Positions 11,897 through 51,411 of a stretch of 64,000 bases of DNA are shown piece by piece. The stretch is from Candidatus Magasanikiibacteriota bacterium. GTDB lineage: Bacteria; Patescibacteriota; Patescibacteriia; Magasanikbacterales; UBA922. Every line of letters starts with the position of its first letter. The stretch's first letter is position 1. The position numbers and the translations under genes were made by a program. Below the pieces are notes generated by a model, which did not search any database, was not told where the DNA came from, and saw nothing but the letters and a program-made list of their open reading frames with translations. Location: assembly GCA_049287025.1 (NCBI GenBank), contig JBAQFA010000051.1, positions 1,697 through 65,696 of the forward strand, read 5' to 3'.

Positions 11897-12544
11897 TTAT
11901 TTACTTACTATTAAATTTACAGTCCAAGGAATGTAATGAGAATCAGAAATTATTTTTGATTCAATTATTGAAAAATTAGATTTTAATAGTTCCAGATATC
12001 CGGCTTCAGTTTTGATGTTTTGTCCCCGATCTTTCTTCATTAAGAATTTTTCTATTAACGATTGTTTTTCTGTCCATACAGGTTCAGCTAGGATAAAGAC
12101 ACCATTTTTATTTAGTTTTTGTTTTATAGTTTTAATTAGTTCTAATGATGTGGTGTCATCCAAATGATGAAAGATGGCTATTGCTAAAACAATGTCAAAA
12201 TTTGATTCAGATGTTGGTAAATTGTCAACTCCACAACAATAAAAATGGCCATATTTAGGGTTATTTTTTTTTGCAAAATTAATATAATTGATATTTATAT
12301 CACACCCTACATAATCAATCATTTGTTTTTTGTTTAAGGCAGTGAGTATGGATCCAGTGCCACAGCCAACATCGAGGATCCTTTTTCTTTCTATTGGTTT
12401 GATATATTCATTAATAATTCGTTTTTTCCATTTTTCTGCTCCACAAATTTTTTGCCATAGATTATAAATTTTTGGACTTTCTAAGATATTTCTCCAACCG
12501 TGTGAAATGTGAGCAATAAATTTTGTTGATTGTGTTTGATTCAT
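11897..12544 (-). CDS. class I SAM-dependent methyltransferase
   Basis: 215 aa. Motif I LDVGCGTGS, Methyltransf_11/23-like. Diverges from the downstream + strand glycan cluster. Confidence 0.8.
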   Translation of the reverse strand: MNQTQSTKFIAHISHGWRNILESPKIYNLWQKICGAEKWKKRIINEYIKPIERKRILDVGCGTGSILTALNKKQMIDYVGCDININYINFAKKNNPKYGHFYCCGVDNLPTSESNFDIVLAIAIFHHLDDTTSLELIKTIKQKLNKNGVFILAEPVWTEKQSLIEKFLMKKDRGQNIKTEAGYLELLKSNFSIIESKIISDSHYIPWTVNLIVSK

Positions 12545-12588
12545 AAAATTAGGAACCCAATTATTTTTAGATAGTAAAGAGTAAATGA

Positions 12589-12617
12589 ATTATAGAGTAT
12601 TTTGTATAAAAAGACAA
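12589..12617 (-). promoter_or_regulatory. sigma70-like promoter TTGTCT-N17-TATAAT for the methyltransferase gene
   Basis: Minus-strand TTGTCTTTTTATACAAAATACTCTATAAT. Shares 26/29 positions with the promoter at 7989-8017. Confidence 0.6.
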
Positions 12618-12803
12618 TTTTGCCGATGTTTTTATTAAAAAAATTCAACCAAAATTGTTAGTTTTTATGATTGATCTTTTTGTCTAAAAATGATAAACTA
12701 TTAGTGTTTTAAGTTAATTTTTTTAATTTAAATAAATAGGTAGGGTTGTTTTGTCTGTAAGTAAAGATTGGATTTGAAAATAAATCTTGGCGTAAACTAG
12801 TAT

Positions 12804-13892
12804 ATGTTTAAAAATAATAATTTATTGAATAATAGTTTTTACAGTGTGTTAGGAACCGTATTGGCTGGTTTTTTTGGTTATGTTTTGAGTTTTATTTTGT
12901 CGCGTCAATTAACTGTGGTTCAGTTTGGTGAATATCAATTTTTTGCTTCAGTTTTTGTCATTTTGGGAATTGTTAGCGCTGGGTTGACATATTTTGTGGT
13001 CAAACATACAGCCGTTTTGGCTGAAATTAATGATTACCAGGCAAATTATTTGTTTATTAATAAAATATTTAAAAAAATTAGCTGGCCTTTGGCTGGTTTT
13101 TTTATTTTATTATTAATTTTAGCATTATTTTTTAGTTGTTTAAAATTTTACAATCTTTCGGCTTTAATGGTTGTTTGTTTGTCAGTAGTTTTGAGTATGG
13201 TTGGTTCTATTTACCTTGGTATGTTTATTGGGTGGCAGGATTTTAAACGGTTTGCTTTGGTTAATACATTGGCCAATCTAATTCGTCTGCTGGTTCCTGT
13301 TCTAGTATGGTTTTACCCTAGCGTAGTTATAGCTACTTTGTCTTTCTTCTTTTATGGTTTAGGAACTTTTGTTTTCGGATATTGGTTTTCTAGAAAAAAA
13401 TGGTTTAAACCAGAATTAAAACTAGCCCAGCCAATCACGCAAAATATTATTACATTGGAAAAAAGGGCTATGGTGTCGGCTTTGCTTTTGTCTGCTCTAA
13501 CTTTGGTTATTGGTAATGGCGATATTCTACTGATTAAATATTTTTTCTCCGCTGAAGTGGTGGGGCAATATTCAGTCTTGGCGTTATTAGGAAGAATGCC
13601 ATTTTTTATTAGTATTGCTATAATCGCGGTATTTTTACCCAAATTTTGTTTGGCAGTTAATTTGGCAGATAAAAAAAATGAAAAACAATTGTTTAGACGA
13701 TCTTATTTATTTATTGGTTTAATTAACATATTTTTTATAGTTTTTTATTACTTTTTTTCTACATTTATTTTAGCATTGTCATTTGGACAAAATTATGTTA
13801 TTTTAAGTAGGGAATTATGGCTGGTGGCTGTGATGTATTTATTTTTTTCCTTAATAGTTTTGAAGGCTAATCAGTTGTTTGTTAAATATTAG
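12804..13892 (+). CDS. polytopic membrane protein, putative oligosaccharide flippase (Wzx/MOP-like)
   Basis: 362 aa, 10 or more hydrophobic helices. N-terminal region resembles polysaccharide biosynthesis (Wzx-type) proteins. Sits within the GT cluster. Family assignment is tentative. Confidence 0.5.
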   Translation: MFKNNNLLNNSFYSVLGTVLAGFFGYVLSFILSRQLTVVQFGEYQFFASVFVILGIVSAGLTYFVVKHTAVLAEINDYQANYLFINKIFKKISWPLAGFFILLLILALFFSCLKFYNLSALMVVCLSVVLSMVGSIYLGMFIGWQDFKRFALVNTLANLIRLLVPVLVWFYPSVVIATLSFFFYGLGTFVFGYWFSRKKWFKPELKLAQPITQNIITLEKRAMVSALLLSALTLVIGNGDILLIKYFFSAEVVGQYSVLALLGRMPFFISIAIIAVFLPKFCLAVNLADKKNEKQLFRRSYLFIGLINIFFIVFYYFFSTFILALSFGQNYVILSRELWLVAVMYLFFSLIVLKANQLFVKY

Positions 13893-13925
13893 TATAAAGA
13901 AGGTATAGATATTATTTATTTTAAA

Positions 13926-14945
13926 ATGGCTAATAATAGAGAAAAAATTGAAGCAAAATGTAGAATCTGCGGACAAAGTGGAAATTTTGATTTGTATAAA
14001 ATAAAAGAGATGTATTATGGCAGTGGCGATGAATTTGACTATTATAAATGTAGCTATTGTGGCTGTCTACAGATAAAAGAATTTTTAAGTGTCGATGATC
14101 TAAATAAATATTATAACAGTAGTTATTATAGTCTTAGTCAGGATAAATTAAATTATTTTAATAGTTCTTTTAAAAAATTTTTAGTAAGAAAAATTGTTAA
14201 CTATGCTATTTATAAAAAGGGTTTGTTTGGTAGAATATTTTACTATCTAAGTCCACAATTGAATTTAACAGCATTAAGAAAAATAAAAATTAATAAAAAT
14301 AGTAGTATATTGGATATTGGTTGTGGTATTGGTTTTGACCTAGCTTGTCTTAATGAGGTTGGTTTTAAGAATTTATTGGGGGCAGACAAATATTTGGAAA
14401 AAGATATTTTGTATGAAAATGGGTTAAAAATTTTAAAAACTGATTTAAACGGGGTAGAGGGTGAATTTGATGTGGTGTTAGCTTTTGATGTTCTTGAGCA
14501 CTTGGATAATCAAGAGGAATTTATAAAAGAAGTTTATAATAAATTAAATAAAAATGGTGTCTGTATATTATCTATCCCGATGATTCCTAGTTATGAATGG
14601 GATAAATATCAAGAAAATATGTTTGATTTGCATGTTCCATTTCATTTTTTTATTCATACCAGAAAGTCATTAGAAATTTTATTAGCAAAAGTCGGTTTTC
14701 GCGTTGATGAAGAAAAAAATTGTTGTAAACAAAATCCTGTTTGTCTAGCTGCCAGTGAGAGTGTTGTCAATGGTATTTGTTTTGTAAAATCAGGTTTGGA
14801 TAAATATTATTTATCTGATCAGGGTATTGTTGATCTTTTGTGGCACAGATTATTTTCTTTGAGAAAATTTAAAAAAATAGCAAACAAAATTAATAAAGAC
14901 AAAACATCAGCTGCGGCAATATTTTATTTGTTTAAAAAAAAATAA
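13926..14945 (+). CDS. class I SAM-dependent methyltransferase with N-terminal Cys4 zinc-ribbon
   Basis: CRICGQ...CSYCGC zinc-ribbon followed by LDIGCGIGFD motif I and DVVLAFDVLEHL motif II. Confidence 0.8.
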   Translation: MANNREKIEAKCRICGQSGNFDLYKIKEMYYGSGDEFDYYKCSYCGCLQIKEFLSVDDLNKYYNSSYYSLSQDKLNYFNSSFKKFLVRKIVNYAIYKKGLFGRIFYYLSPQLNLTALRKIKINKNSSILDIGCGIGFDLACLNEVGFKNLLGADKYLEKDILYENGLKILKTDLNGVEGEFDVVLAFDVLEHLDNQEEFIKEVYNKLNKNGVCILSIPMIPSYEWDKYQENMFDLHVPFHFFIHTRKSLEILLAKVGFRVDEEKNCCKQNPVCLAASESVVNGICFVKSGLDKYYLSDQGIVDLLWHRLFSLRKFKKIANKINKDKTSAAAIFYLFKKK

Positions 14946-14946
14946 T

Positions 14947-15879
14947 ATGAAAAGAATTTCTATAGTTTTACCGGTTTTTAATGAAGAAAAATCTTTGGAA
15001 GAATTGATGTCGCGGTTAAGACAAATGGCAGATAAAGAAATGAATTATGAATTTGAGTTTATTTTTATCAACGATGGTAGTAGAGATAAAAGTTTGGAAA
15101 AATTATATAATTATTCCATAAATGATAAAAGAATAAAAGTTATTGATTTTTCTCGTAATTTTGGACACCAACCAGCCGTGAGCGCTGGCATTGAGCATGC
15201 TTTAGGTGAAGCAATAATTATAATGGATTCTGATTTACAAGATCCGCCGGAATTTATTTCTAGTTTGTTAAAAAAATGGGAAGAGGGTTTTGAGGTGGTT
15301 TATGCTGTTAGAAAAAAGCGTAAAGAAAACATTTTAAAAAGAGTTTGTTATAATTTGTTTTATTTGATTTTAAATAAAATATCAACCGTTTATATACCGA
15401 GGGATAGTGGTGATTTTTCTTTGATTGACAAAAAAGTAGTTAAAGAAATGATAACTCTAAAAGAGAGAATAAAATTCATTCGTGGTATTAGAGCTTGGGT
15501 GGGTTTTAGACAAATCGGTCTAGAGTATGAAAGAGATGCTAGATTTGCCGGTGAAACTTCTTATAATTTTAGAGCTTTGATTAGAATTGCCTTGGATGCA
15601 ATTTTTTCTTTTTCCTTTTTGCCATTAAAATTGCCATTTTATGTTGGTTTTTTTGGGCTGTTTATGTCTTTGGTTATTATTGTTTATTTAATTATTATGT
15701 ATTTTTTTACTGGTTTTTTGTTTGAAAATAAATGGGTTTATGTGATAGCGGCTACTTTTATTATGTTAAATCTTAATTTTTTCTTTTTAGGTATTTTTGC
15801 AATATATTTTTCCCGTTTAATAGATGAAGTAAAAGAACGTCCGTTATATATAATTAATAAAAAAATTAATTTTGATTGA
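14947..15879 (+). CDS. GT2 polyprenyl-phosphate glycosyltransferase (DPM1/ArnC-like) with C-terminal TM helices
   Basis: SIVLPVFNEE...INDGSRDKS...DSDLQDPPE GT2 motifs plus two C-terminal hydrophobic helices, typical of lipid-phosphate sugar transferases. Confidence 0.85.
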   Translation: MKRISIVLPVFNEEKSLEELMSRLRQMADKEMNYEFEFIFINDGSRDKSLEKLYNYSINDKRIKVIDFSRNFGHQPAVSAGIEHALGEAIIIMDSDLQDPPEFISSLLKKWEEGFEVVYAVRKKRKENILKRVCYNLFYLILNKISTVYIPRDSGDFSLIDKKVVKEMITLKERIKFIRGIRAWVGFRQIGLEYERDARFAGETSYNFRALIRIALDAIFSFSFLPLKLPFYVGFFGLFMSLVIIVYLIIMYFFTGFLFENKWVYVIAATFIMLNLNFFFLGIFAIYFSRLIDEVKERPLYIINKKINFD

Positions 15880-15882
15880 AAT

Positions 15883-17004
15883 ATGACAGATAAAAATTTT
15901 TGGTTTGGCAAAAGAGTTTTAGTAACTGGTGGGGATGGTTTTGTGGCTTCTCACCTGGTAAAATTCCTTTTGACTAGGGGAGCAGTGGTGGTAGTGACGG
16001 TTAGACACAAAAGACCGATTTCTACTTTGCGTTTGATTTTGGAAGAAGATAATAAAGAACATTTTATTAATCCAGATATTGAAGAGTGTGATTTATTAGA
16101 TTTTTATTCTTTGAGAAGAGTCTGTGATCGACATCAAATTGATACAATTTTTCATTTGGCAGCTTCGGCAATTGTGGTGGATGCAGCCAATTCACCAGTT
16201 TCTACAGTTGAAAATAATGTAATGGGTACATTAAATATTTTGGAAGTAGCAAGAATAAATAAAATTCCTAGGGTATTAGTAGTTTCTTCAGACAAAGCTT
16301 ACGGGGATCATACTCAAATTCAGTCTGAACAAATTCCTTATTTAGAAAAATATTCACTACGAGGGTTGGATGTTTATAGTGCATCCAAGGTGTGTACTGA
16401 TGTCTTGGCTCAGACATATTCTTTTCAATTCAAAGTGCCGGTAATAGTAGCTCGGGCTTGTAATATTTACGGTCCAGGTGATTTAAATTTTTCTCGTCTT
16501 ATACCAAAGACAATTATGGCACTTTTGTCTGGTAAGTCACCAATAATAAATCAAGGTAATGAATTAGTTTTGCGTGAGTATATTTATGTAGAGGATGTGG
16601 TAAATGCATATTTGTCTTTGTTGGAGAAAGTGCAAGATTATTATGGAGTAGATAATTGCAATATGCCAAAATCTGGTGTTGAAACTTTTGGTTGGGCAGC
16701 TTTTAATGTTGGTAATTATGAGGACAAAGATTTATTAGATATTAAGAAATGCAATGGAATAAAAAGTGTTTCAGACATAATACATATTTTACGCGGTAAA
16801 ATTGCTGATGTAGAGCCGATTGTAAAAGAAAAACATGAAAATTTTATTGAAATTCCTGATCAGTATTTGGATTCAAGTAAAATCTTTAAAATTGGTTTTA
16901 GACCACAGGTTGATTTTGAAGAGGGTTTAGATAGAAGTATTGAGTGGTATAAAAATAATAAAAATTATTTAGAAAAAATAGCCCATAAATATCTAAATAC
17001 CTAA
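15883..17004 (+). CDS. NAD-dependent epimerase/dehydratase (extended SDR)
   Basis: VLVTGGDGFVASHLV Rossmann motif. Catalytic YSASK (YxxxK). Confidence 0.85.
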   Translation: MTDKNFWFGKRVLVTGGDGFVASHLVKFLLTRGAVVVVTVRHKRPISTLRLILEEDNKEHFINPDIEECDLLDFYSLRRVCDRHQIDTIFHLAASAIVVDAANSPVSTVENNVMGTLNILEVARINKIPRVLVVSSDKAYGDHTQIQSEQIPYLEKYSLRGLDVYSASKVCTDVLAQTYSFQFKVPVIVARACNIYGPGDLNFSRLIPKTIMALLSGKSPIINQGNELVLREYIYVEDVVNAYLSLLEKVQDYYGVDNCNMPKSGVETFGWAAFNVGNYEDKDLLDIKKCNGIKSVSDIIHILRGKIADVEPIVKEKHENFIEIPDQYLDSSKIFKIGFRPQVDFEEGLDRSIEWYKNNKNYLEKIAHKYLNT

Positions 17005-17009
17005 GTATT

Positions 17010-17816
17010 ATGATGCCTTTGGTTTCGGTTATAATGATAAATTATAATAATTCTAAGTTTTTATCTGAAGCGATTGAAAGTGTTTTGAATCAAACCTTTA
17101 GAGATTTTGAATTAATTATTGTGGATGATTGTTCTACGGATAACAGTTTGTTTATTATAAATAGTTACGCCCAAAAAGATTTAAGAGTAAAAGTCTTAAA
17201 AAATGAAGTTAATAGTCATATAGTTTTTTCTAGAAATAGAGGAATAAAAGAATCAAAAGGGAAATATGTTTTTTTTATAGATAGTGATGATTTGTACATG
17301 CCTGATTGTGTAAAAAAAAATATTGATTTTTTTGATAAAAATGAAGATTGTGGTTTGTGTGGAACTTGGTCAATGTTAATAGATGAAAATAGTGAACCAT
17401 TGGGATTAAAAAAATATCCTGTAAATGATCAAGAAATTAGATATAGATTATTTTTTTATAATCCTCTAAGATTATTGGCAATAAGAAGGAGCTGTTTTGA
17501 TAGTTTGGGGCTACTTGATGATTCTTTTCGTCATTTTGAAGATTTGGAATTTTTGTTTAGAATATCAAAAAGGTATAAATTACATAATTTACCAGAGGTT
17601 TTAACTAGGTATCGTCTTCACGGTGATAATGCAGTTTTTACCAAACAAAAAGAAATGATAAAGGGTGTTTTGCAATTAAGAAAAGAAATTTTAAAATATT
17701 ATAAACAACCACTGACTTTACCTATAGTTATTTCTTTTTTTCTTACTTGGTTGGCAAAGTTTTTACCAGTGAGTTGGGTTGAATTTTTATTTCAGTTTTT
17801 TCGTAAAAGATTATAA
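17010..17816 (+). CDS. glycosyltransferase family 2
   Basis: VSVIMINYNNSKFLSEAIESVLNQTF...IIVDDCSTDNS...DSDD motifs. Confidence 0.88.
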   Translation: MMPLVSVIMINYNNSKFLSEAIESVLNQTFRDFELIIVDDCSTDNSLFIINSYAQKDLRVKVLKNEVNSHIVFSRNRGIKESKGKYVFFIDSDDLYMPDCVKKNIDFFDKNEDCGLCGTWSMLIDENSEPLGLKKYPVNDQEIRYRLFFYNPLRLLAIRRSCFDSLGLLDDSFRHFEDLEFLFRISKRYKLHNLPEVLTRYRLHGDNAVFTKQKEMIKGVLQLRKEILKYYKQPLTLPIVISFFLTWLAKFLPVSWVEFLFQFFRKRL

Positions 17817-17822
17817 TTATAT

Positions 17823-18659
17823 ATGTTGTTTCAACCAAAAATCAGCGTGATCATGCCATTTTATAATGATGAAAAATATCTTGAAGAAACGGTAGAAAGT
17901 ATTTTGGTGCAGACTTTTGTTGATTTTGAATTTATTATTATTAATGATTATTCAAAAGATAAATCAGGAGAGATAATAAAGAAATATCTTAGTGATCAAA
18001 GAATTAGATATTTTAATAACTTAGAAAATAAGGGGATTGTTGATAATACAAATATGGCAATTGAAAAGGCCAGAGCAGAATTTATTGCCATTGTAGACCA
18101 TGATGATTTGTCAGATCCAACACGTTTGCAAAAAGAATTTGATTTTTTAACAAATAATCCAGATTATGCCTTAGTTAGTTCATTTGTGAAATATATTGAT
18201 TCTGTTGGTAAAGAAATTGGCTTTTCGACGCAATCAATTTCTAATGAAGATATTCGCAAGGATATTTTTTTGCATTGTCCTTTTTGGAATCCAGCTTGTA
18301 TGTTTAGAAAGTCGGTTTGGCAAGAAGTTGGTAAATATCGTAAACAGTATGAATTGTGTCAAGATTATGATTTGTTGTTTAGAATAGTTTATTCTGGTTA
18401 TAAAGTAGCTAATTTACCTGAGTTTTTGCTTAAGTATCGAATTCATGTGACCAATGCTTCTTTCAAGAGAGTACGCGAATTAGAAAAGAAGTGCTATCAT
18501 TTAAGAATAGAAATGGTAAAAAAATTTAATTTGAAATTATCTTGGAAAGAAAAATTATTTATGTGGGCACATCTAATTCTTGGCTATTCTCTCTCTGGGT
18601 ATCAGAAAAAAAAAATAGAAACTCTTTTCAAAAAAATATTTTATGGTAGAAAAATTTAA
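17823..18659 (+). CDS. glycosyltransferase family 2
   Basis: ISVIMPFYNDEKYLEETVESILVQTF...IIINDYSKDKS...DHDD motifs. Paralogous to the previous gene. Confidence 0.88.
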   Translation: MLFQPKISVIMPFYNDEKYLEETVESILVQTFVDFEFIIINDYSKDKSGEIIKKYLSDQRIRYFNNLENKGIVDNTNMAIEKARAEFIAIVDHDDLSDPTRLQKEFDFLTNNPDYALVSSFVKYIDSVGKEIGFSTQSISNEDIRKDIFLHCPFWNPACMFRKSVWQEVGKYRKQYELCQDYDLLFRIVYSGYKVANLPEFLLKYRIHVTNASFKRVRELEKKCYHLRIEMVKKFNLKLSWKEKLFMWAHLILGYSLSGYQKKKIETLFKKIFYGRKI

Positions 18660-21054
18660 ATTTTTTTTAAGTAAAAATTGGGGTTGGTTGGTTTTTTTAA
18701 TAATGACTTTTTTGAGTTTATCATTTATGATTTTTCAAAAAGGAGTGTGGACTTTTATAGACGAAGCTTATCAAATTTATTATCTTTTAAATTCCGGGGT
18801 ATATTGGCACCATCTTTTTAATTTTTGGGATTCTTGGATTTTTTTTGGCCATGATGCTAGTCAACTTTTATCTAGTAGAATGTGGCCAGGAATTATAGAA
18901 AATTTTTTAAAATTATTGTTTGGTTTAAAATTTGGGAATATAGCATACTTTATTCTGTATTTTTTATTTTCCTATCTTTCTAGTCGCAAATGTCTATCAT
19001 ATATTGTAGATAAAAATAGTAGTATAGTAGGTGCTTTATTTTTTACTTTTAATCCTTTGTCCATTTTCATGTTGGCCGAAGGAAATTTTGTTTTTGTTTA
19101 TCCATCTATAACTATAATAATTGCTTCTTTTTTAGGTTATATTAATAAAAAAGAAAAGATTGATTGGAAATTTTTACTAGTTTTTTTGTTTGGTTGTTGT
19201 TTTTTGATGGCTTATCCACGGATAAGTTGTATGTATATTATTTTACTTTTTAGTATTATTATATTTTATTGGAAATTTTTTTGGCAGATCTTACAAGAAC
19301 AAAAAAAGAAAATGTTTTTGTTGTTTGTGTGTACACTAATTTTTTTATTGCCGATTATACTTAGTTATGGGTTGGTTTTTTTTGATTCTACTAAAGGACA
19401 ATTACCAGGAGTTTATAATTATGTAGAAAATGGCAAGGTATATGCTCAGAATGCTTATAGCATAAACAAGGAAGAAAGTTTTGATAATGCTTTTTTTCTA
19501 GATGAAATTTTTCCAAATTTTATTTATCAAATGTATGACAAACAGTGGGTAAGATTTATTTTAATATCGGTTTTTGGTTCGATTTTTTTATTATTTTTTT
19601 TATTTCAAAAACAGAATAAATTTACAAGAAAAGAACGTTCTTTAATTTTATTTTTTCTTTCGGTATTGGTTTGTAGTATTTTTATTAGAATGATTGGTAA
19701 ATTTGTTTCTTTGGACAATTTTACTCTTGTAATTTATAAATATTTATTTTTTTTAACCAATTGGGTTAATTGGATTTCTTTTGTTACATTGTTTGGTTTG
19801 ATTGTGCCTTTTACTTTTCTTATTTTTAAGAGTGAAAATATATTAAAGAAAATCTTATTTTTTTTATTTTGTTTAATGTTGTTTGTTTGTGTTTATTCCA
19901 CTCTTAGGTTCGGTGATAATCCTAAGTTGGATACTTTGAGCTTAGGTGATATCCCTAAAGATTATCAATCTCTTTTTGTACAAACGAAAAACTATTCACC
20001 TAAACCAGCTTTGTTTTTTCCAGATTATTTAAATTATTTTAAATGGTTTCCTTCTTATCTGTTGGATATTACATTTAGCGGAAATTATCAAAATTTGTTT
20101 AGTAGTAATGACCGTTTGGTTAATAATAAGCAAATTGGGGTTGTGGGGAAAATTTACAATGTAAATACTTATAAAAACATCCAAAATTTATTTATTTTTA
20201 ATTTAAAAGATTTGTTTGTTTTTAAAGACGTTAAGGAAGTTGTTGTTGGTCAGTTTTCTTGGACTGAACCAAATAAGAGGGTGGAGAGATCAAAAGAGGC
20301 CTATGATTTTTTGATTAACAACAATGAAGTGACCTCAACTTTTGATAATAATTTGGCTCATTTTAATTTAATAAATTCAGACGACTTTGATTATTTAGTT
20401 TATTTACCTAAAAAAATTATTTATAGTGAGTTGACTGAATTTTTGGATTCTACTTCAACTCCACAGGCAAGGCCAGTACTAGTTGATAAAGAGTCTTATA
20501 ATAAACAAGCGGTGGAAGGTTTAGATGATTTTAATTTTAATGAAAATAATTCTGTTGATGTTAAGTATTCTTTTCTTAACAAAAGCAAATATTATTTAAA
20601 AATAAACAGATCTAACCTGGACAAGTCCATGTTACTTCACCTTAATCAAACTTTTGCCAGTGGTTGGAAACTAAAATTTGTAGATAAAGAATATTTTGAA
20701 GAAAAAAAATGTGAAGATGATTATGTATTTTATAAATTATCAAATAATAGTGTGTGTCATTATAATTCCAAAATTTTAGAATTGGAAGATGTAAGGCTTT
20801 TATTTAAGCCTACTTTGTCAGATACAAAACATTTTCAAGGTAATTTTATTGGTAATACTTGGTTGGTTGATCCTCAAGATATACCAAATAATTATAAAAA
20901 CAACGAGGATTTGTATGTAGTTTTGGTTTATCAAAACCAGATTTATTATGGCTACGCGACCGCTACGTCAATTTTGGTTTGTATTGTTTTGTTGGGGCTG
21001 ACCATAATTCAAGAGATAAAGAAAAAATATTTTGTTAAAAATGAAAATAATTGA
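18643..21054 (+). CDS. large polytopic membrane protein with C-terminal extracytoplasmic domain (candidate GT-C-fold glycosyltransferase / polymerase)
   Basis: 803 aa. About 12 N-terminal TM helices then a ~380-aa soluble domain. First loop carries an acidic FIDEAY motif. Start overlaps the upstream GT2 gene by 17 nt. Confidence 0.55.
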   Translation: MVEKFKFFLSKNWGWLVFLIMTFLSLSFMIFQKGVWTFIDEAYQIYYLLNSGVYWHHLFNFWDSWIFFGHDASQLLSSRMWPGIIENFLKLLFGLKFGNIAYFILYFLFSYLSSRKCLSYIVDKNSSIVGALFFTFNPLSIFMLAEGNFVFVYPSITIIIASFLGYINKKEKIDWKFLLVFLFGCCFLMAYPRISCMYIILLFSIIIFYWKFFWQILQEQKKKMFLLFVCTLIFLLPIILSYGLVFFDSTKGQLPGVYNYVENGKVYAQNAYSINKEESFDNAFFLDEIFPNFIYQMYDKQWVRFILISVFGSIFLLFFLFQKQNKFTRKERSLILFFLSVLVCSIFIRMIGKFVSLDNFTLVIYKYLFFLTNWVNWISFVTLFGLIVPFTFLIFKSENILKKILFFLFCLMLFVCVYSTLRFGDNPKLDTLSLGDIPKDYQSLFVQTKNYSPKPALFFPDYLNYFKWFPSYLLDITFSGNYQNLFSSNDRLVNNKQIGVVGKIYNVNTYKNIQNLFIFNLKDLFVFKDVKEVVVGQFSWTEPNKRVERSKEAYDFLINNNEVTSTFDNNLAHFNLINSDDFDYLVYLPKKIIYSELTEFLDSTSTPQARPVLVDKESYNKQAVEGLDDFNFNENNSVDVKYSFLNKSKYYLKINRSNLDKSMLLHLNQTFASGWKLKFVDKEYFEEKKCEDDYVFYKLSNNSVCHYNSKILELEDVRLLFKPTLSDTKHFQGNFIGNTWLVDPQDIPNNYKNNEDLYVVLVYQNQIYYGYATATSILVCIVLLGLTIIQEIKKKYFVKNENN

Positions 21055-22768
21055 ATTTTTCAAAAAAAATAGTTTGGTCATAGCGTACTCAGCTTTGGTA
21101 GTTTTGATACTCGCGCCATTGATGCGTAAGGGGTATATTTTTGGAACTGATTTAACATTTGGACCAAATAGACTCTTGCCAACCATAGGCGAAAACACCT
21201 ATTTATTGGATTGGGTGCATTATCTTTGGCAACAATTTTTGCCAGTTTGGTTATTAGAAAAAATTGTCTTTGTTTTTATATTTGTAATCATGATCTATGG
21301 TACAGATAAACTTTTGCAGTTTTTTGTGTCTGACAAATGGTTGAGATTTTCCGGAGTATTAATAGTGACTGGTAGTCCATTTTTATATGAAAGATTTGTA
21401 GATGGGGCCTTCAATGTTTATTGGTCTTATGCTCTGTATCCATTATTTCTATTTTTAATTATTAAATTTTTTGCAGAACGTAGTTTTATAAATATTATAA
21501 AATTGTTAATTATAGTTTTTGTTTTATTAGGCACTTCTATTTATAATGTTTTGATTATTTTTTTAGTAAGTCTGATTTTTTTTATTGTTTATCTGATTCG
21601 AGATGTCGATAAAAAAGATTTGTTTTGGAAAAGTGGTTTAGTCTTATTGTTGGCGGTTATTACCAATTTGTATTGGATGATACCGACACTGCAAAAAGAA
21701 AATGATCAAGGTTATTTGATTGTTGATTCTGTTAACCAAGAAGATTTTAGAGTATTTGCCCCAGTCGGTATTGACCCTCTAAATGTACTTTTGTCAGTTT
21801 TGGCTACTGGTGGGCATTGGGGAGCAGCTACAGACAGGTATTTATCATTTGATCAATTTAATTCTCGGTGGTATTTGGCTTGGTTTTTAATATTTTTATT
21901 AATAATATTTGGAATAGTAAAAAGTTTTAAAAATGCAGAAAAAATAAAAAGAATTTTTTTGGCATTGTTATTAATTGGAATATTTTGTTATTTTTTCGCT
22001 TTAGGTGTTTCTACTGTTTTTTCTAATTATCTTACAAAATTTTTATCTACCCATTTTGTTGTGTATAATGGGTTTAGAGAGACAACTAAGTGGTTGGGTT
22101 TGGTACCAATTGTTTATGCTGTGTTTTATGTTTTTGGAGCAAAAAAGTTATTAGAAATAAAAATGATGGAGAATAAAAGAAAGATAATTTTATTAGCAAT
22201 AATTTTGTTGCCGTTTCTTTTTTCTTTGCCAATTTTTTTGGGTGGACACGGCCAAGTAAAGGCAGTTGATTATCCAAAAGACTGGTATGAGCTGGATGAA
22301 AAAATTAATCAAACAATCTTAATTGATAATGAGAATTGTGAATATAAACAAAATAAAAAAATTGAGAATTGTTATACAGCACTAGTTTTGCCTTGGCATT
22401 TTTATCAACATTTTAAGTTTGTAAACAGAATTGTTATTAATCCTTTTGTGAGTTTTTTGAAAGTTAGAGCTTTGGTAGCTGATAATATAGAAATTGGTAA
22501 AATTTATTCTCAGAGCAACCGGTTTGAATCAAAAATTATAGAAAAATATTTTTCACCCACTGGTGTTTGGTATTATAAAAATGACCTAGAAGTAGATGAA
22601 TATAATATTTTTTTAGATGAACTTAAAAAAATGGGTGTTAAATACATTATTTTAGATAAAGAGATGGACTATGAGTGGTATCAGAATATTTTTTTAAAAA
22701 TGCTTGATGTTAACTTATTAAAACTGTGGTGGTCGAGTGATAATTTACTTGTTTATGAAATTTATTAA
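21032..22768 (+). CDS. large polytopic membrane protein (second candidate GT-C-like / YfhO-like)
   Basis: 578 aa, many TM helices plus a C-terminal soluble region. Overlaps the preceding gene by 23 nt. Confidence 0.5.
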   Translation: MLKMKIIEFFKKNSLVIAYSALVVLILAPLMRKGYIFGTDLTFGPNRLLPTIGENTYLLDWVHYLWQQFLPVWLLEKIVFVFIFVIMIYGTDKLLQFFVSDKWLRFSGVLIVTGSPFLYERFVDGAFNVYWSYALYPLFLFLIIKFFAERSFINIIKLLIIVFVLLGTSIYNVLIIFLVSLIFFIVYLIRDVDKKDLFWKSGLVLLLAVITNLYWMIPTLQKENDQGYLIVDSVNQEDFRVFAPVGIDPLNVLLSVLATGGHWGAATDRYLSFDQFNSRWYLAWFLIFLLIIFGIVKSFKNAEKIKRIFLALLLIGIFCYFFALGVSTVFSNYLTKFLSTHFVVYNGFRETTKWLGLVPIVYAVFYVFGAKKLLEIKMMENKRKIILLAIILLPFLFSLPIFLGGHGQVKAVDYPKDWYELDEKINQTILIDNENCEYKQNKKIENCYTALVLPWHFYQHFKFVNRIVINPFVSFLKVRALVADNIEIGKIYSQSNRFESKIIEKYFSPTGVWYYKNDLEVDEYNIFLDELKKMGVKYIILDKEMDYEWYQNIFLKMLDVNLLKLWWSSDNLLVYEIY

Positions 22769-23327
22769 AATTTTGAAAGATGATTTAGAATTTATTTTTG
22801 ATTATTTTGCTAGCCATTATTTATTTTTGTTTAGTTTTTTTTGTTTAGCTTTTGTCTTGACGGTTTTTATTCCGGTTTGGTCTCCATTAGTTAATGTAAA
22901 AGCTCTGGTAGTTTTTTTTATAATTTATAATGTGTTTGTTTTGCTCAGCAAAAAAGGAAAGAAATTTTTGTCTGAGATTTTTTTGGTATACAAGAAAAAG
23001 AGGTTAAATTTATCTTTTTTTCCACAACTCAGTTTGAGACTAAAGGACATTATAAAATTTATTTTGTTTACTTTAATTTTAGTGGTTTATTTGTTTTTCT
23101 TTCATAATCTATTTTCTTTTATTTTCTTTTTTTTAGGTTGTTGGGCGGTTTTATATTATTTAGAAAGTAGAGTACTGGCGGGATTGGCAATATTGTGTTT
23201 ACTTGGGCATTTTTTCCTTGTTTGGTATAAACAGACGTTATTAGCGGAAAGTTTGGCTTTGAGCGTTTTCTATTTATTAGTCATTGCTACTATAGTAGAA
23301 GTAAAGAATTTTTGGTTAAAAAAATAA
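22737..23327 (+). CDS. small hypothetical membrane protein (196 aa, ~5 TM)
   Basis: Hydrophobic ORF overlapping the upstream gene by 32 nt. Last gene of the overlapping run. Confidence 0.45.
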   Translation: MIIYLFMKFIKILKDDLEFIFDYFASHYLFLFSFFCLAFVLTVFIPVWSPLVNVKALVVFFIIYNVFVLLSKKGKKFLSEIFLVYKKKRLNLSFFPQLSLRLKDIIKFILFTLILVVYLFFFHNLFSFIFFFLGCWAVLYYLESRVLAGLAILCLLGHFFLVWYKQTLLAESLALSVFYLLVIATIVEVKNFWLKK

Positions 23328-23384
23328 GTTTGAATATAAAACTGTGGATAATATAGGTTTCACATAGAATTTTTATAATTTTTG

Positions 23385-23393
23385 TGGTATAAT
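23385..23393 (+). promoter_or_regulatory. extended -10 element TGgTATAAT upstream of the giant gene
   Basis: TGGTATAAT 30 nt before the ATG at 23423. Confidence 0.5.
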
Positions 23394-23422
23394 TCCTTCA
23401 AGGATTAAACAATTCGTTTTTT

Positions 23423-34449: not shown

Positions 34450-35110
34450 AATAAAATTGATAATTACCCCGTTAGGGGTTAAAGATGTTAGGCAGGCACT
34501 TTAGTGCCTGCTAGGAGAAATATAATAATTTAGTCCCATAGGGACGACATAAAAAGGTCAGCTGTAATTTATGGCCAATACCTATACCAATTTATTTGTC
34601 CATATTGTATTTAGTGTTAAGGAAAGAAGACCATTGTTAAATAAAGAATTAAGAAATGAATTATTCCCCTATATTATTGGGATAGCGAAAGCAAAAAATT
34701 TTCAAATACCGATAATAAATGGGGTTGATGACCATGTTCATATCCTAATGTTATTAAAACCAGATTTACCAGTGTCTCAAGCTGTTCAGTTTATTAAAGG
34801 TGGTTCGTCAAAATGGATACATAATAAATTTGATGATTTAAAAATATTTGCCTGGCAAGAAGGTTATGGCGCGTTTAGTGTGAGCACTTCGCAAATAGAC
34901 AGGGTTAAAAAATATATTTTAAACCAGTCAACCCATCATCAAAAAATAGATTTTAAACAAGAATACAAAAAATTATTGGAAATAAATAATATAGAATTTG
35001 AGGAAAAATATTTGTTTTAATTATGCCGTCCCTATGGGACTGTGGGGTTGGGTGATAAATTAACAGGCACTAAAGTGCCTGCCTAACATAAATTTGTCCC
35101 TATGGGACAA
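34450..35110 (+). mobile_element. IS200/IS605-type or REP-associated (RAYT) HuH tyrosine transposase element bounded by inverted hairpins
   Basis: Left flank hairpins ACCCCGTTAGGGGT, GGCAGGCACTTTAGTGCCTGC, GTCCCATAGGGAC. Right flank has the reverse-complement copies GTCCCTATGGGAC (twice) and CAGGCACTAAAGTGCCTGCC. Inserted between gap and pgk. Confidence 0.8.
34571..35020 (+). CDS. tnpA: Y1 HuH transposase, IS200-like / REP-associated tyrosine transposase (TnpA)
   Basis: 149 aa. LFVHIVFSVKERRP (IS200 N-terminal strand), HuH motif DDHVHILM, catalytic Tyr region WQEGYGAFSV. Confidence 0.85.
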   Translation: MANTYTNLFVHIVFSVKERRPLLNKELRNELFPYIIGIAKAKNFQIPIINGVDDHVHILMLLKPDLPVSQAVQFIKGGSSKWIHNKFDDLKIFAWQEGYGAFSVSTSQIDRVKKYILNQSTHHQKIDFKQEYKKLLEINNIEFEEKYLF

Positions 35111-37893: not shown

Positions 37894-40800
37894 ATGTATC
37901 AAGCTAACAACGAAGAACAAAAAGTTCTAAAATATTGGGAAGAAAATAAGACTTTTGAGAAGTCTGTTTCAGAGCGTCCAGAAAATAAGCCATATGTTTT
38001 TTATGATGGCCCACCGTTTGCGACTGGCCTGCCTCACTATGGTCATATTTTAAGCTCGGTTATAAAAGATGTGGTACCAAGATATATGACTATGAAAGGT
38101 TATCGTGTCCGTCGTCGCTGGGGTTGGGATTGTCATGGTCTACCAATTGAAAACATTGTAGAAAAAGAATTAAAAGTCTCGGGTAAAAAAGATGTAGAAG
38201 AAAATTTGGGTGTAGACAAATTTAATGAGACTTGTCGATCAAAAGTTTTGACTTATACTCAAGATTGGAAAAAGATGATCAACCGGATTGGTCGGTGGGT
38301 GGAGTTTGATAATGCTTACAAAACCATGGACTCTACCTATATGGAGTCTGTTTGGTGGTCTCTAAAAACTATTTGGGAAAAGGGTTTGATTTATGAAGGT
38401 CGAAAAGTCCTCATGTATTGCCCTCGTTGTGAAACTCCAGTCTCTAAAGCCGAAATTGCTATGGATGATAGTTATAAGGATATTACTGAGGAAACAGTTG
38501 TTGCGAAATTTAAACTTAAAAATCCAGAAAAACATGGATTGCCAGATAACACATCTATACTCGCATGGACTACTACACCATGGACATTGCCAGGAAATGT
38601 GGCTCTTGCAATTGGTAAAGATATTGATTATGTTTTGGTTCATTATTTTGATTTAGGATTAGAAGCAAAAGAACAGAAGGGGTTTGAGAAATTAAAACCA
38701 AGTGTTTTTAGTTCCTATTGTTTAATTTTAGCCAAGGATAGAGTAAATGAAGTGTTAAAAGAACAACAATATGAATTGATAAAAGAGTTTAAGGGATCAA
38801 ATTTAATTGGGGCAGAATATGAACCACTATTTGATATCCCAGCGATTAATGAAACAGGGAAAAAAGCTTGGTATGTGACTGACGCTGATTTTGTTACGAC
38901 CGAAGAAGGTACTGGTGTAGTACATACGGCCGTTGTGTATGGTGAAGACGATTATAATCTTGGTTTACAAAGAGATTTGCCAGTTGTACCACTCTTGGAT
39001 GACAAAGGACATTTTAATGAATTTGCTCCAGAATTTATAAAAGGTAAATATTTTAAAGGGGCAGAAAAAGAAATTAAAGCTGATTTAGAAACTCGGGGTT
39101 TATTATTTAGTCGAGAACAACATACTCACTCTTATCCACATTGTTGGCGGTGTGATACTCAGCTTTTTTACAATGCTATTTCCGCCTGGTTTATTGATAT
39201 TCAAAAGATTAAAGATAAATTAATTAAATTGAATGAAAAAATTAATTGGTTTCCAGACCATTTGAAGCATGGACGTTTCTTAAATATTTTGGAAACAGCC
39301 CCGGATTGGAATATTTCTCGCAATCGTTTTTGGGCGACACCTTTACCTTTTTGGAAATGTGATAATAAAGAATGTGATAATCAAGTTTGTGTAGGTAGTG
39401 TGGATGAATTAAGAGAAAAAGGTGATCGAGAAATTACTAAGGTTATGTTTATGCGTCATGGTGAAGCTAATCATGAAATAGAAATGGTCAAATCCAGTGA
39501 CGTTAATAAGCACTCATTGACTGAAATTGGTAAAGAACAAATTAAAACTTGTGCCAAAAATATAAAAGACAAAGTGGATATTATAATTAGTTCGCCAGTT
39601 TTGCGTTGTCGAGAAACCGCTGAAATTTTGAGTAAAGAATTAAAGGTTGATATTGTAATTGATGATTTGATTACTGAATATAATCATGGTGGATGGAGTG
39701 AAATAAAACGAGATGAATTAGAAAAAATGGCTAGTTTTATAGAATATAAGAAAATAACTTCTTTAGAAGAAAAATTTAATTATCATTTAGGTGAAAATGG
39801 TGAATCAAGAAAGGAAATTACTGACAGAGTGGATAAATTTCTTAAAAATATTAACAAAAAATATTCTGGTAAGACTGTTTTAATTGTAAGTCATGGTGGT
39901 GTAAATGCTTCCATGAGTAAAATTTTGTCAGATGTTAATTACGAACAATATTTTTTGGAAGAAGACATTAGTCATGAGGCGCCAAAATATTTTTATATTG
40001 ATAATAATAACAAAGGTCTCGATCTTCACAAACATAATGTAGACAAAATCAAACTAAAATGTGACAAGTGTGGCGGCACAATGACAAGAATCCCAGAAGT
40101 GATTGATTGTTGGGTAGAGTCAGCTAGCATGCCATTTGCGGAGTGGCATTATCCATTTGAAAATGTAGAAACATTCAAAAAACGTTTTCCTGGTCAATAC
40201 ATTGCCGAATATATTGCTCAGACCCGAGCATGGTTTTATTACATGCATGTTATGGCAGTATTATTATTTGATGATGTGAGTTTTGAAAATGTGGTTTGTA
40301 CTGGGACGATTCTGAATGACAAAGGCGAGAAATTATCAAAATCAAAAATGAATTATACTGATCCGTGGAAAATCATTGATGAGTTCGGGGTAGATGCTCT
40401 GCGTTATTATCTTATGACTTCGGTTGTAATGCAAGCCGAAAATTTGTATTTCAATGATCGAGAAGTACGCGATGTTTATAACAAGGTCATGAATATTTTG
40501 GATAATGTGTTGTCGTTTTATGGTATGTATCACACGGAGGGCACGGAATTAAAGGATTACACGGATTCAGAAAATGTGTTGGACAAATGGATATTAGCTA
40601 AATTGAATGTATTAGTGGGTGAAGTGACAGAACACATGGACAAATATGATACAGTGCGAGCGGGCAGACCAATTAAAGATTTTATTGATGAACTTTCTAC
40701 TTGGTATTTACGTCGTTCTCGTGATCGTTTCAAAGATGAAAATGAAACTGATAAACAATTTGCTTTAGCCACTTTGCGTCAAGTTCTAGAAACTTTGTCC

Positions 40801-41451
40801 AAGCTTATGGCACCATTTACGCCATTTATTGCGGAGAAAGTTTGGTATACCGTGACTGGTAGTAAAGAGAGTGTACACTTACAGGAGTGGCCAGTGGTTG
40901 ATGAAAAAATGATTGATAAAAAGGTCTTAGGAGATATGGAGTTAGTGAGGAAGATCGTTGAATTAGCATTAGCTCTAAGGGCAGAAACAGGTCTTAAAGT
41001 TAGACAACCTATTAATAATTTGGAAGTTGCTTCAACTGTACTTGGTTCTGATTTTGGTTTGCAATTAAAGATGATGGTTTTGAGTGAAGTTAATGTAAAT
41101 ACCAATATACTAAGCTTGACAAACAAAGTTACACAAAGAGAAGGATATGTTTATAAAGAGAGCGGAGGGCTAAGTGTTGGGATTGATACAAATATAACTC
41201 CTGAACTCAAAAAGCTGGGTTTACTTCGTGAAGTTGTTCGAACGATCAACCAAATCCGTAAAGAACAAAAAATGACAATTGAAGACAGGGTGGTAGTAGA
41301 ATATAGTACAGATGATCAATTGTTGAATAGTGTATTTGTGGATTTTGCTGAAGAATTGAAAAAGTCAGTTTTGGCAACAGAGCTGAAAGTTGGGGAAACT
41401 GGTGTAGAAGTAGAAATTGATGGAAAGAAAATAAAACTAAAAGTATCTTAA
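37894..41451 (+). CDS. ileS: isoleucine--tRNA ligase, type 2 (eukaryote/Thermus-like), with an inserted ~200-aa histidine-phosphatase (PGAM-like) domain
   Basis: HIGH region PPFATGLPHYGHIL (type-2 IleRS signature). KMSKS as KLSKSK. C-terminal block LDLHKHNVDKIKLKCDKCGGTMTRIPEVIDCWVESASMPFA matches the T. thermophilus-type IleRS. An RHGE...SSPVLRCRETA...SHGG domain is inserted at 39411-40011. Confidence 0.92.
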   Translation: MYQANNEEQKVLKYWEENKTFEKSVSERPENKPYVFYDGPPFATGLPHYGHILSSVIKDVVPRYMTMKGYRVRRRWGWDCHGLPIENIVEKELKVSGKKDVEENLGVDKFNETCRSKVLTYTQDWKKMINRIGRWVEFDNAYKTMDSTYMESVWWSLKTIWEKGLIYEGRKVLMYCPRCETPVSKAEIAMDDSYKDITEETVVAKFKLKNPEKHGLPDNTSILAWTTTPWTLPGNVALAIGKDIDYVLVHYFDLGLEAKEQKGFEKLKPSVFSSYCLILAKDRVNEVLKEQQYELIKEFKGSNLIGAEYEPLFDIPAINETGKKAWYVTDADFVTTEEGTGVVHTAVVYGEDDYNLGLQRDLPVVPLLDDKGHFNEFAPEFIKGKYFKGAEKEIKADLETRGLLFSREQHTHSYPHCWRCDTQLFYNAISAWFIDIQKIKDKLIKLNEKINWFPDHLKHGRFLNILETAPDWNISRNRFWATPLPFWKCDNKECDNQVCVGSVDELREKGDREITKVMFMRHGEANHEIEMVKSSDVNKHSLTEIGKEQIKTCAKNIKDKVDIIISSPVLRCRETAEILSKELKVDIVIDDLITEYNHGGWSEIKRDELEKMASFIEYKKITSLEEKFNYHLGENGESRKEITDRVDKFLKNINKKYSGKTVLIVSHGGVNASMSKILSDVNYEQYFLEEDISHEAPKYFYIDNNNKGLDLHKHNVDKIKLKCDKCGGTMTRIPEVIDCWVESASMPFAEWHYPFENVETFKKRFPGQYIAEYIAQTRAWFYYMHVMAVLLFDDVSFENVVCTGTILNDKGEKLSKSKMNYTDPWKIIDEFGVDALRYYLMTSVVMQAENLYFNDREVRDVYNKVMNILDNVLSFYGMYHTEGTELKDYTDSENVLDKWILAKLNVLVGEVTEHMDKYDTVRAGRPIKDFIDELSTWYLRRSRDRFKDENETDKQFALATLRQVLETLSKLMAPFTPFIAEKVWYTVTGSKESVHLQEWPVVDEKMIDKKVLGDMELVRKIVELALALRAETGLKVRQPINNLEVASTVLGSDFGLQLKMMVLSEVNVNTNILSLTNKVTQREGYVYKESGGLSVGIDTNITPELKKLGLLREVVRTINQIRKEQKMTIEDRVVVEYSTDDQLLNSVFVDFAEELKKSVLATELKVGETGVEVEIDGKKIKLKVS
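39411..40011 (+). other. in-frame histidine phosphatase superfamily (branch 1, PGAM-like) domain inserted in the ileS linker loop
   Basis: Motifs MRHGEANHE (catalytic His), LTEIGKEQI, SSPVLRCRETAEIL, LIVSHGGV (second His). Flanked on both sides by bona fide IleRS sequence in the same frame. Confidence 0.8.
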
Positions 41452-51276: not shown

Positions 51277-51323
51277 AATTAATCTAATTATTCTAATTGA
51301 CCTAATTAACCTAAAAAATTATC

Positions 51324-51346
51324 AATGTCTAATTTAGAATAATTAG
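51324..51346 (+). repeat. intergenic repeat family copy C (internally deleted derivative: AATGTCTAAT-T-TAGAATAATTAG)
   Basis: Retains both ends of copies A/B and lacks the central ~40 nt. Embedded in an AATTAG-rich spacer (51279-51375). Confidence 0.65.
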
Positions 51347-51411
51347 TATAATTAGGTTAATTAGAAATTTGAGAAATTATTATAGTAAAAAGACATATCA
51401 TAAAATAAATT

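Follow-up and report, generated by a model that had tools for sequence, protein, structure and literature searches.

The polysaccharide pellicle (PSP) of lactococci is produced by a pathway in which a family 2 glycosyltransferase (GT2; WpsA/B) makes C55-P-GlcNAc, cytoplasmic glycosyltransferases (GTs) elongate it, and the Wzx-like protein WpsG flips it, with GT-C-fold enzymes acting in polymerisation (WpsH/WpsI) and in transfer onto rhamnan (WpsJ) (PMC10821137). A DxDxQ motif is conserved in polyisoprenyl-phosphate GT2s (PMC10821137). The pgf locus of Streptococcus mutans encodes PgfS, PgfM1, PgfE, and PgfM2 together with the cnm/cnaB/cbpA adhesin genes (PMC5856776; 10.1101/2024.05.05.592596), and poly-Ser/Thr disordered tracts are the demonstrated acceptors in the streptococcal GtrB/PgtC2 and Pgf systems (10.1101/2024.05.05.592596). 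Mycobacterial AftD has about 1,400 residues, 16 transmembrane (TM) helices, and three carbohydrate-binding modules, and corynebacterial MmpA is implicated in trehalose-lipid transport, with a role in anchoring a complex to the membrane also proposed (PMC8698533). The envelopes and glycans of the candidate phyla radiation (CPR, Patescibacteria) are almost uncharacterised, and the glycosylation processes of Saccharibacteria have been called unexplored (10.1101/2024.11.25.624915). Here, we describe a ten-gene glycan cluster, and the giant secreted surface protein (the giant) encoded directly downstream of it, in a 64,000-nucleotide stretch (the window) of a metagenome-assembled genome of Candidatus Magasanikiibacteriota, a CPR bacterium.

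We consider it probable that this locus is a conserved CPR envelope-glycan assembly operon for multi-component transmembrane glycosylation on a polyprenyl-monophosphate carrier, and the acceptor is most likely a wall-associated glycopolymer. The ten genes are a real sugar-chain assembly operon, and their clustering exceeds chance because the same gene grouping is kept across CPR lineages. Based on their structural models, we confidently assign the two large membrane proteins of the cluster, M803 and M578, as previously unannotated GT-C-fold membrane glycosyltransferases, with M803 resembling a "mini-AftD". The locus provides a concrete envelope-glycan gene set kept across CPR lineages, and an envelope glycan of this kind could matter for episymbiont–host attachment and for phage recognition.

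The two large membrane proteins and the enzymes encoded with them

Neither M803 nor M578 matched a Pfam model, and M803 had no match in NCBIfam either. The AlphaFold model of M803, computed from a 70-sequence alignment, reached a predicted local distance difference test score (pLDDT) of 93.4 and a predicted template modelling score (pTM) of 0.93. It contains ~12–13 N-terminal TM helices, an extracytoplasmic alpha/beta and beta-sandwich region (residues ~430–763), and a C-terminal TM anchor. The model of M578 (pLDDT 81, pTM 0.84) lacks the C-terminal beta-domain and the anchor that M803 has. Searching the PDB with Foldseek, we found AftD (6w98) as the top match of M803 (E = 6e-7), followed by STT3, AglB, PglB, ArnT, DPY19, AftA, and ALG12. 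Likewise, M578 had 14 significant matches (E <= 0.001), all of them GT-C enzymes (STT3, DPY19, and PglB; E values from 3e-6 to 3e-4). For both models, every PDB match within this limit was a GT-C enzyme (AftD, STT3, PglB, or DPY19), with ArnT and AftA matching more weakly. Fold prediction of the two proteins, which the initial annotation had proposed as the check on its GT-C-like label, thus returned a GT-C fold for each.

The relation to AftD and STT3 holds at the level of the fold only, because searches of PDB sequences with the M803 and M578 family profiles returned nothing meaningful. Neither protein matched the AftD model PF11847 (GT-C_AftD), and neither has the architecture of AftD proper: they are 803 and 578 residues long, and only in M803 is a soluble domain flanked by the N-terminal TM bundle on one side and a TM helix at the C terminus on the other. 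Among relatives, PF11847 matched 3 of 44 M803 homologs (best E = 2.1e-15) and 1 of 15 M578 homologs (E = 3.3e-5). When 1.84 billion cluster representatives were searched with a profile, 168 of them, mostly 750–800 residues long, fell into the M803 family at E <= 1e-3.

When the two families were compared with hhalign, they aligned with a probability of 97% (E = 5.5e-11) and Asp40 of M803 was paired with Asp40 of M578; by this comparison, the two proteins are paralogs. In both models, Asp40 sits in the loop after helix 1. It is kept in at least 90% of the 70 M803 homologs, where it lies in the first outer loop, and is invariant in the 15 M578 homologs, and we regard it as the candidate catalytic Asp of both proteins. 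M803 and M578 each combine two marks of the GT-C superfamily, the fold match and, in the extracytoplasmic loop that follows TM1, an acidic residue that is conserved. The outer domain of M803 additionally carries a conserved C690/C705 pair. Two membrane-protein families that have no Pfam model can now be assigned a GT-C fold with confidence, each with an Asp that is a catalytic candidate, and a full-text literature search on GT-C glycosyltransferases in CPR found no paper. The co-encoded GtrB-type synthase and Wzx-like gene indirectly suggest that M803 and M578 use a polyprenyl-phosphate-linked sugar donor.

The predicted source of that donor is the GT2 encoded by 14947–15879. The initial annotation had called it Dpm1-like; it is a polyprenyl-phosphate GT, as that label implied, but its closest solved relatives are GtrB and ArnC, with dolichol-phosphate mannose synthase (DPMS) weaker. 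It matched Synechocystis GtrB (5EKP) over its full length (residues 4–304; E = 1.8e-73), ArnC at E = 6e-39, and archaeal DPMS at E = 1.4e-14. Along with this homology and the catalytic domain, it contains a DSDLQ (DxDxQ) motif and two C-terminal TM helices (residues 233–251 and 266–284), the features that define GtrB-type polyisoprenyl-phosphate glycosyltransferases. As a member of that family, it would make a lipid-P-sugar.

The Wzx-like protein matched PF01943 (E = 1.3e-12) across profile positions 1–270 of 274 and has about 10–12 hydrophobic segments; its match to NCBIfam WZX_like was weak. In an alignment, its C terminus ends ~50 residues before those of the 408–414-residue homologs from related loci L001, L007, and L021, and the protein is either a flippase that is short by nature or one that a deletion has truncated. 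A frameshift remnant behind the gene was considered and dropped, as the gap between its stop and the next gene is only 33 nt. A lipid-P-sugar synthase, a flippase, and GT-C enzymes make up the set needed for extracytoplasmic glycosylation, and on this point we agree with the initial annotation.

The remaining products would supply and extend the sugars. The top NCBIfam matches of the short-chain dehydrogenase/reductase (SDR) were CDP-glucose and dTDP-glucose 4,6-dehydratase, below cut-off, and the match to GalE was much weaker, at 86.7 bits against a cut-off of 262. Its top PDB matches were also dTDP/CDP-glucose 4,6-dehydratases, and its sequence contains SSDK and YSASK motifs; CDP-glucose 4,6-dehydratases typically have an Asp-Lys pair. 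The 339-residue methyltransferase, presumed to act in sugar O/N-methylation, has an N-terminal CxxC...CxxC arrangement (C12-x2-C15 ... C42-x2-C45 in the translation). The soluble GT2 encoded by 17010–17816 presumably acts in cytoplasmic elongation, and its homolog adjoins the GtrB-like gene in most related loci. Homologs of the second soluble GT2 were found in L001, L004, L019, L020, and L022. The small membrane protein m196, which may be an accessory subunit, matched nothing in Pfam or NCBIfam; its sole similarity, a weak one (E = 0.008), was to a 196-residue open reading frame (ORF) at the same place after the M578 homolog in L021. We also compared m196 with the ~100-residue proteins encoded between M803 and M578 in relatives and discarded it as their homolog, as no significant similarity was found. 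Neither a priming phosphoglycosyltransferase (Bac_transf/WecA-type) nor Wzy was found among the cluster proteins with Pfam and NCBIfam, which fits a monophosphate-carrier pathway such as that of lactococcal PSP.

Table 1 Features of the glycan cluster and of the surface-protein gene that follows it
Feature	Coordinates	Strand	Evidence
Class I S-adenosylmethionine-dependent methyltransferase, 215 aa, divergent	11897-12544	-	Pfam Methyltransf_31/25/11, E ~1e-15
Wzx-like (MOP/Polysacc_synt) lipid-linked-glycan flippase, 362 aa	12804-13892	+	PF01943
Zn-ribbon + Methyltransf_23 methyltransferase, 339 aa	13926-14945	+	PF13489, E 1.5e-18
GtrB/ArnC/PgfS-type polyprenyl-phosphate glycosyltransferase, 310 aa	14947-15879	+	PF00535, E 2e-31
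SDR, NDP-hexose 4,6-dehydratase-like, 373 aa	15883-17004	+	PF01370, E 5e-51; GDP_Man_Dehyd, E 7e-47
Soluble GT2, TuaG/EpsE-like, 268 aa	17010-17816	+	PF00535, E 3e-35; NCBIfam matches below cut-offs
Second soluble GT2, EpsE/TuaG-like, 278 aa	17823-18659	+	PF00535, E 4e-31
M803, GT-C-fold membrane protein, 803 aa	18643-21054	+	AlphaFold + Foldseek
M578, GT-C-fold membrane protein, 578 aa, M803 paralog	21032-22768	+	AlphaFold + Foldseek; hhalign
m196, small polytopic membrane protein, 196 aa, ~5-6 TM	22737-23327	+	Hydrophobic segments
Spacer, 95 nt	23328-23422	+	Sequence
Giant secreted surface protein, 3242 aa	23423-33151	+	Pfam domains

The gene inventory of the initial annotation was recovered in full, with all ORFs and their boundaries in place and the family assignments in agreement. 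Nine of the ten genes are tightly packed on the + strand (12804–23327), with gaps of 1–33 nt or overlaps of 17–32 nt, and the tenth is the divergent methyltransferase gene. With a GC content of 0.285 and a third-position GC content (GC3) of 0.199, the latter resembles the cluster, unlike the left-flank gene, and marks the left edge of a low-GC block. The 5' flank of the region is housekeeping (rpoB, rpoC, HlyIII, YebC, RuvC, and a PUA-domain methyltransferase, PUA-MTase), and the 3' flank contains genes for GAPDH, an IS200-type transposase, PGK, isoleucyl-tRNA synthetase (IleRS), and enolase, among others. Low GC was considered as a sign of a foreign cluster beside a native giant and dropped, since the GC3 of the giant gene is 0.23 and those of the cluster are 0.17–0.26. 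Rfam and tRNA scans of the window gave no matches.

Two further observations concern the 3' flank. The IleRS-like protein (1185 residues; 37894–41451, + strand) carries an inserted His_Phos_1 domain (PF00300; residues 518–685, E = 1.5e-29) between the halves of its catalytic domain, an unusual insertion for a class I synthetase. Tandem cofactor-independent phosphoglycerate mutase paralogs of 527 and 524 residues are encoded at 49693–52986 (+ strand).

The cluster core and giant surface proteins in relatives

Loci with M803 and/or M578 homologs were gathered from genomes, metagenomes, and assemblies and re-annotated with code 11 or code 25, the locus scan for M803 homologs being seeded with a 4-sequence alignment. 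A conserved core composed of the GtrB-like GT2, one or often two soluble GT2s, M803, a small protein, and M578 recurred in about 12 independent loci from Moraniibacteriota, Gracilibacteria, Peribacteria, and unclassified CPR-like contigs. In L001, L004, L007, L008, and L020–L023, the genes are intact only if UGA is read as Gly (code 25), and because this code is needed, these loci are attributed to Gracilibacteria/Absconditabacteria-type lineages. Judged by its reading frames, the cluster spans recoded and standard-code CPR.

The core is accompanied by variable additions, including Wzx, SDR, EamA, and hexapeptide acetyltransferases. UDP-glucose dehydrogenase is encoded in L001 and L005 and, by position, also in L007, TagF-like and TagD-like genes lie directly before the M803 homolog in L004, and the distant locus L009 encodes a Wzy_C-like protein of 1023 residues. 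Such variable neighbours are typical of polysaccharide loci. None of the about 12 independent loci has an ORF of at least 1,500 residues near the core; the largest core neighbours are a P-type ATPase (about 860 residues), a Wzy_C-like protein (1,031 codons), and a Gly-rich protein (1,118 codons).

Two of the loci gathered have unusual layouts. In L022 (5975–12349), GT2 genes precede each of two M803 paralogs and the contig contains no M578 homolog, which suggests a modular duplication of the GT-C and GT2 unit. In L003 (6755–12671), a protein of >2,200 residues joins an STT3 domain (PF02516) to CarboxypepD_reg repeats, 4 kb from a distant AftD-like GT-C protein of 851 residues; such a fusion of a GT-C domain with a giant surface-type protein deserves attention in itself.

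We searched for homologs of the giant with a 1000-residue internal piece as the query. The homologs, of 1,268–1,732 residues and with fn3, CarboxypepD_reg, or PG_binding_1 domains, were found in six independent contexts: beside EF-Ts (L011), after EF-G (L012/L013 and, as a separate locus, L024), beside an LCP protein (L014/L015), beside an integrase (L016), and beside other unrelated genes (L025). The glycan cluster was present within the available flanks of none of these six loci. In L011, which comes from a fairly close relative, the PUA-MTase and GAPDH are 64.5% and 74% identical to those of the window, respectively, and their genes are directly adjacent. The order in L011 (1–15700) is EF-Ts, a 2663-residue protein, a 1572-residue giant homolog, PUA-MTase, and GAPDH, and that in the window (10568–34348) is PUA-MTase, the glycan cluster, the giant, and GAPDH. 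Because PUA-MTase and GAPDH are adjacent in L011, the 21-kb block of cluster plus giant between them in the window is a local arrangement, and giant surface-protein genes seem to move around the PUA-MTase/GAPDH neighbourhood. An IS200-type Y1 transposase gene (PF01797, E = 1.7e-29; 34571–35020, + strand; GC 0.284) lies between the GAPDH and PGK genes, just 3' of this block, and may be linked to the local rearrangement seen in comparison with L011.

The initial annotation had taken the juxtaposition as a sign that the giant is the substrate of the system or forms one surface layer with the glycan, and had named a cluster that is never syntenic with giant-protein genes in relatives as the observation that would count against this; in the loci gathered here, the pairing is not conserved. 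From these gene orders, the adjacency of cluster and giant is specific to this genome and does not define the function of the system.

Candidate acceptors and competing explanations

In the pathway that we propose, the SDR and the two methyltransferases would tailor sugars, possibly to a methylated 6-deoxy sugar, and the GtrB-type GT2 would move the sugar from a nucleotide sugar to undecaprenyl phosphate at the cytoplasmic face. The two soluble GT2s may then lengthen the lipid-P-sugar to a short oligosaccharide, the Wzx-like protein would flip the lipid-linked glycan, and M803 and M578 would use the flipped glycan outside the membrane for polymerisation and/or transfer to the final acceptor. 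Within this scheme, we infer the carrier lipid, the order of the steps, the identity of the sugar, the division of labour between the two GT-C proteins, and the acceptor. The component classes of the operon, the recurrence of its core across CPR lineages, the polysaccharide-type neighbours in relatives, and the missing priming enzyme and Wzy count for an envelope glycan. The top structure match of M803 is the polysaccharide-acting AftD, and the pairing of cluster and giant appears in none of the about 12 cluster loci and none of the six giant-homolog loci.

Several points weigh against this interpretation. Judged from sequence, either a polysaccharide or proteins, the giant perhaps among them, could be the acceptor. 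The best structure matches of M578 are protein-glycosylating GT-C enzymes (STT3, PglB, and DPY19), a similarity at the fold level only (TM-score ~0.5, 9–13% identity), and the best NCBIfam match of the GtrB-like GT2, far below cut-off, is PgfS, from a protein O-glycosylation system. Flipping by the Wzx-like protein is uncertain because of its short C terminus, and only analogy suggests that the soluble GT2s extend the lipid-P-sugar. Moreover, the giant gene follows 95 nt after the cluster with no terminator, and its GC3 of 0.23 is nearer the cluster than the housekeeping genes.

The 95 nt of the initial annotation is correct as the distance from the last cluster stop (23327) to the giant ATG (23423); it ends at the start codon and not, as had been written, at a promoter, none having been mapped. 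The spacer contains an extended -10-like element, TGGTATAAT, at ~23386–23394, no terminator-like hairpin was found in it, and no terminator was called after 22768. Since a promoter scan found sites no more frequently than in shuffles, the -10-like element is only suggestive and an operon boundary cannot be claimed.

According to Pfam, the giant has an N-terminal signal/TM segment, CarboxypepD_reg, four fn3 stretches, a BNR-like region, and a C-terminal PG_binding_1 domain. Its combined Ser and Thr content is 25.5%, and it is thus Ser/Thr-rich as first described, with these residues spread through beta-rich domains. Short Ser/Thr runs (4–6 residues long) number 35, compared with 10 in shuffles. 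The check for poly-Ser/Thr acceptors covered the giant only, among the proteins of this genome, and found no long poly-Ser/Thr disordered tract in it, only four windows of 26–39 residues with at least 56% Ser/Thr; since the giant lacks such a tract, a protein acceptor becomes less plausible. Right after the signal sequence (residues ~45–90), the giant also has a Gly-Tyr repeat stretch, GYGYGYGYGIGYG ... YGYGYGY.

A general protein O-glycosylation system akin to Pgf, in which the GtrB-like GT2 provides the lipid-P-sugar and the GT-C proteins modify Ser/Thr of secreted or surface proteins outside the membrane, with the giant as one of several substrates, is possible but on the unlikely side. Its gene logic matches that of the S. 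mutans pgf locus, with PgfS, an SDR, two paralogous GT-C proteins, and adhesin genes (PMC5856776; 10.1101/2024.05.05.592596). Because S. mutans combines a core machinery with a variable adhesin next to it (the non-core cnm), a synteny that is not conserved is compatible with such a system. The giant is secreted and enriched in short Ser/Thr runs, and no terminator separates it from the operon. PgfS (NF047588) is the top NCBIfam match of the GT2; however, this full-length match scored 229.7 bits against a cut-off of 500, and the full-length ArnC match scored 155 bits, both below their equivalog cut-offs. With its PgfS score below the cut-off, the GT2 is a relative from the wider GtrB family and no PgfS ortholog. 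The GT-C proteins are AftD/MmpA-like and do not belong to the YfhO family, since PF09586 matched neither the window proteins nor the 44 + 15 relatives, the SDR is dehydratase-like and not a GalE-type epimerase, and the giant does not have the demonstrated type of streptococcal acceptor. Furthermore, several features point to a polymer, namely the extra, conserved soluble GT2s, the Wzx-like protein, and genes of polysaccharide type beside the core in relatives (UDP-glucose dehydrogenase, TagF/TagD-like, Wzy_C-like, and acetyltransferases), and the cluster is absent from all six giant-homolog loci.

We regard as quite unlikely a broader proposal, in which the M803 and M578 families act as transferases in an extracytoplasmic protein O-glycosylation machinery that extends across the CPR, has so far gone unrecognised, and decorates folded beta-rich surface proteins such as the giant with no need for the disordered poly-Ser/Thr acceptors of Firmicutes. 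If true, it would give Patescibacteria their first defined protein glycosylation system.

We find it very unlikely that M803, M578, or both lack transferase activity and instead act as an MmpA-like scaffold for a glycolipid or lipoglycan, or help in its transport, while the GT2s produce a membrane glycolipid. MmpA (NCBIfam NF053599) is the only curated-family match of M578 (84.9 bits, E = 4.6e-24), but this score is far under the cut-off of 210 and M803 had no match, so neither protein falls within the MmpA family. Asp40 is invariant or nearly so in both families and aligned between the paralogs, as expected for active GT-C enzymes, and the co-encoded GtrB-type synthase and flippase would make a donor that only a GT-C enzyme would use.

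Finally, a system that serves the giant alone and is inherited together with it as a single functional module is barely credible: adjacency, co-orientation, the short spacer without a terminator, and the GC3 of the giant favour it in this genome, but about 12 core loci have no ORF of at least 1,500 residues nearby, six giant-homolog loci have no cluster, the giant homolog of L011 lies upstream of a PUA-MTase gene that itself adjoins GAPDH, which makes the arrangement here a local rearrangement, and an extended -10 element of its own seems to precede the giant. The giant adjoins the cluster, and its membership in the glycan system is not supported by the comparison of loci.

Comparison with known systems

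An envelope-glycan operon on a polyprenyl-monophosphate carrier finds its closest counterpart in the PSP/GacIJKL type of system (PMC10821137). Both contain a GT2 polyprenyl-P-sugar synthase with DxDxQ, a Wzx-type flippase, GT-C enzymes for polymerisation or final transfer, cytoplasmic GTs that could extend the lipid-P-sugar, and small membrane accessory proteins, and neither needs a priming phosphoglycosyltransferase. However, the synthase of the cluster has two TM helices of its own (GtrB-type) and no GacJ/WpsB partner, its GT-C proteins are a CPR-specific AftD/MmpA-like pair without a Pfam model, its Wzx is unusually short, and no rhamnan genes lie near it. All component classes of C55-P multi-component transmembrane glycosylation, as predicted from the genes, are encoded in one operon and correspond one-to-one to those of the Gram-positive systems, with the caveat of the short Wzx. 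The Wzx/Wzy-dependent O-antigen/capsule pathway is a poorer fit, as the priming phosphoglycosyltransferase and Wzy of that pathway were not found in the cluster.

Comparing the locus with S. mutans Pgf, the two share a GtrB-like GT2, a sugar-nucleotide SDR, two paralogous GT-C proteins, an adjacent surface-protein gene, and a core machinery with a variable neighbour. Nevertheless, the Pgf GT-C proteins are of the YfhO family, whereas those of the cluster are AftD-like, and PgfE is a 4-epimerase, whereas the SDR of the cluster is 4,6-dehydratase-like. Pgf has no Wzx, extra soluble GT2s, or methyltransferases, and its substrates have poly-Ser/Thr disordered regions that the giant does not. Three hallmarks of Pgf, two YfhO-family GT-C proteins, a UDP-hexose 4-epimerase, and a poly-Ser/Thr disordered substrate, are thus missing from the cluster and the giant.

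M803 and M578 share the GT-C TM module with mycobacterial AftD (PDB 6W98) and corynebacterial MmpA, and M803 additionally shares with AftD a soluble outer domain between the N-terminal TM bundle and the C-terminal TM helix. Unlike the hosts of AftD and MmpA, the bacterium that carries the cluster belongs to the CPR and has no arabinogalactan or mycolates, and the sequence similarity is below threshold. Overall, the locus is a CPR version of a known type of system, with unannotated AftD-like GT-C families.

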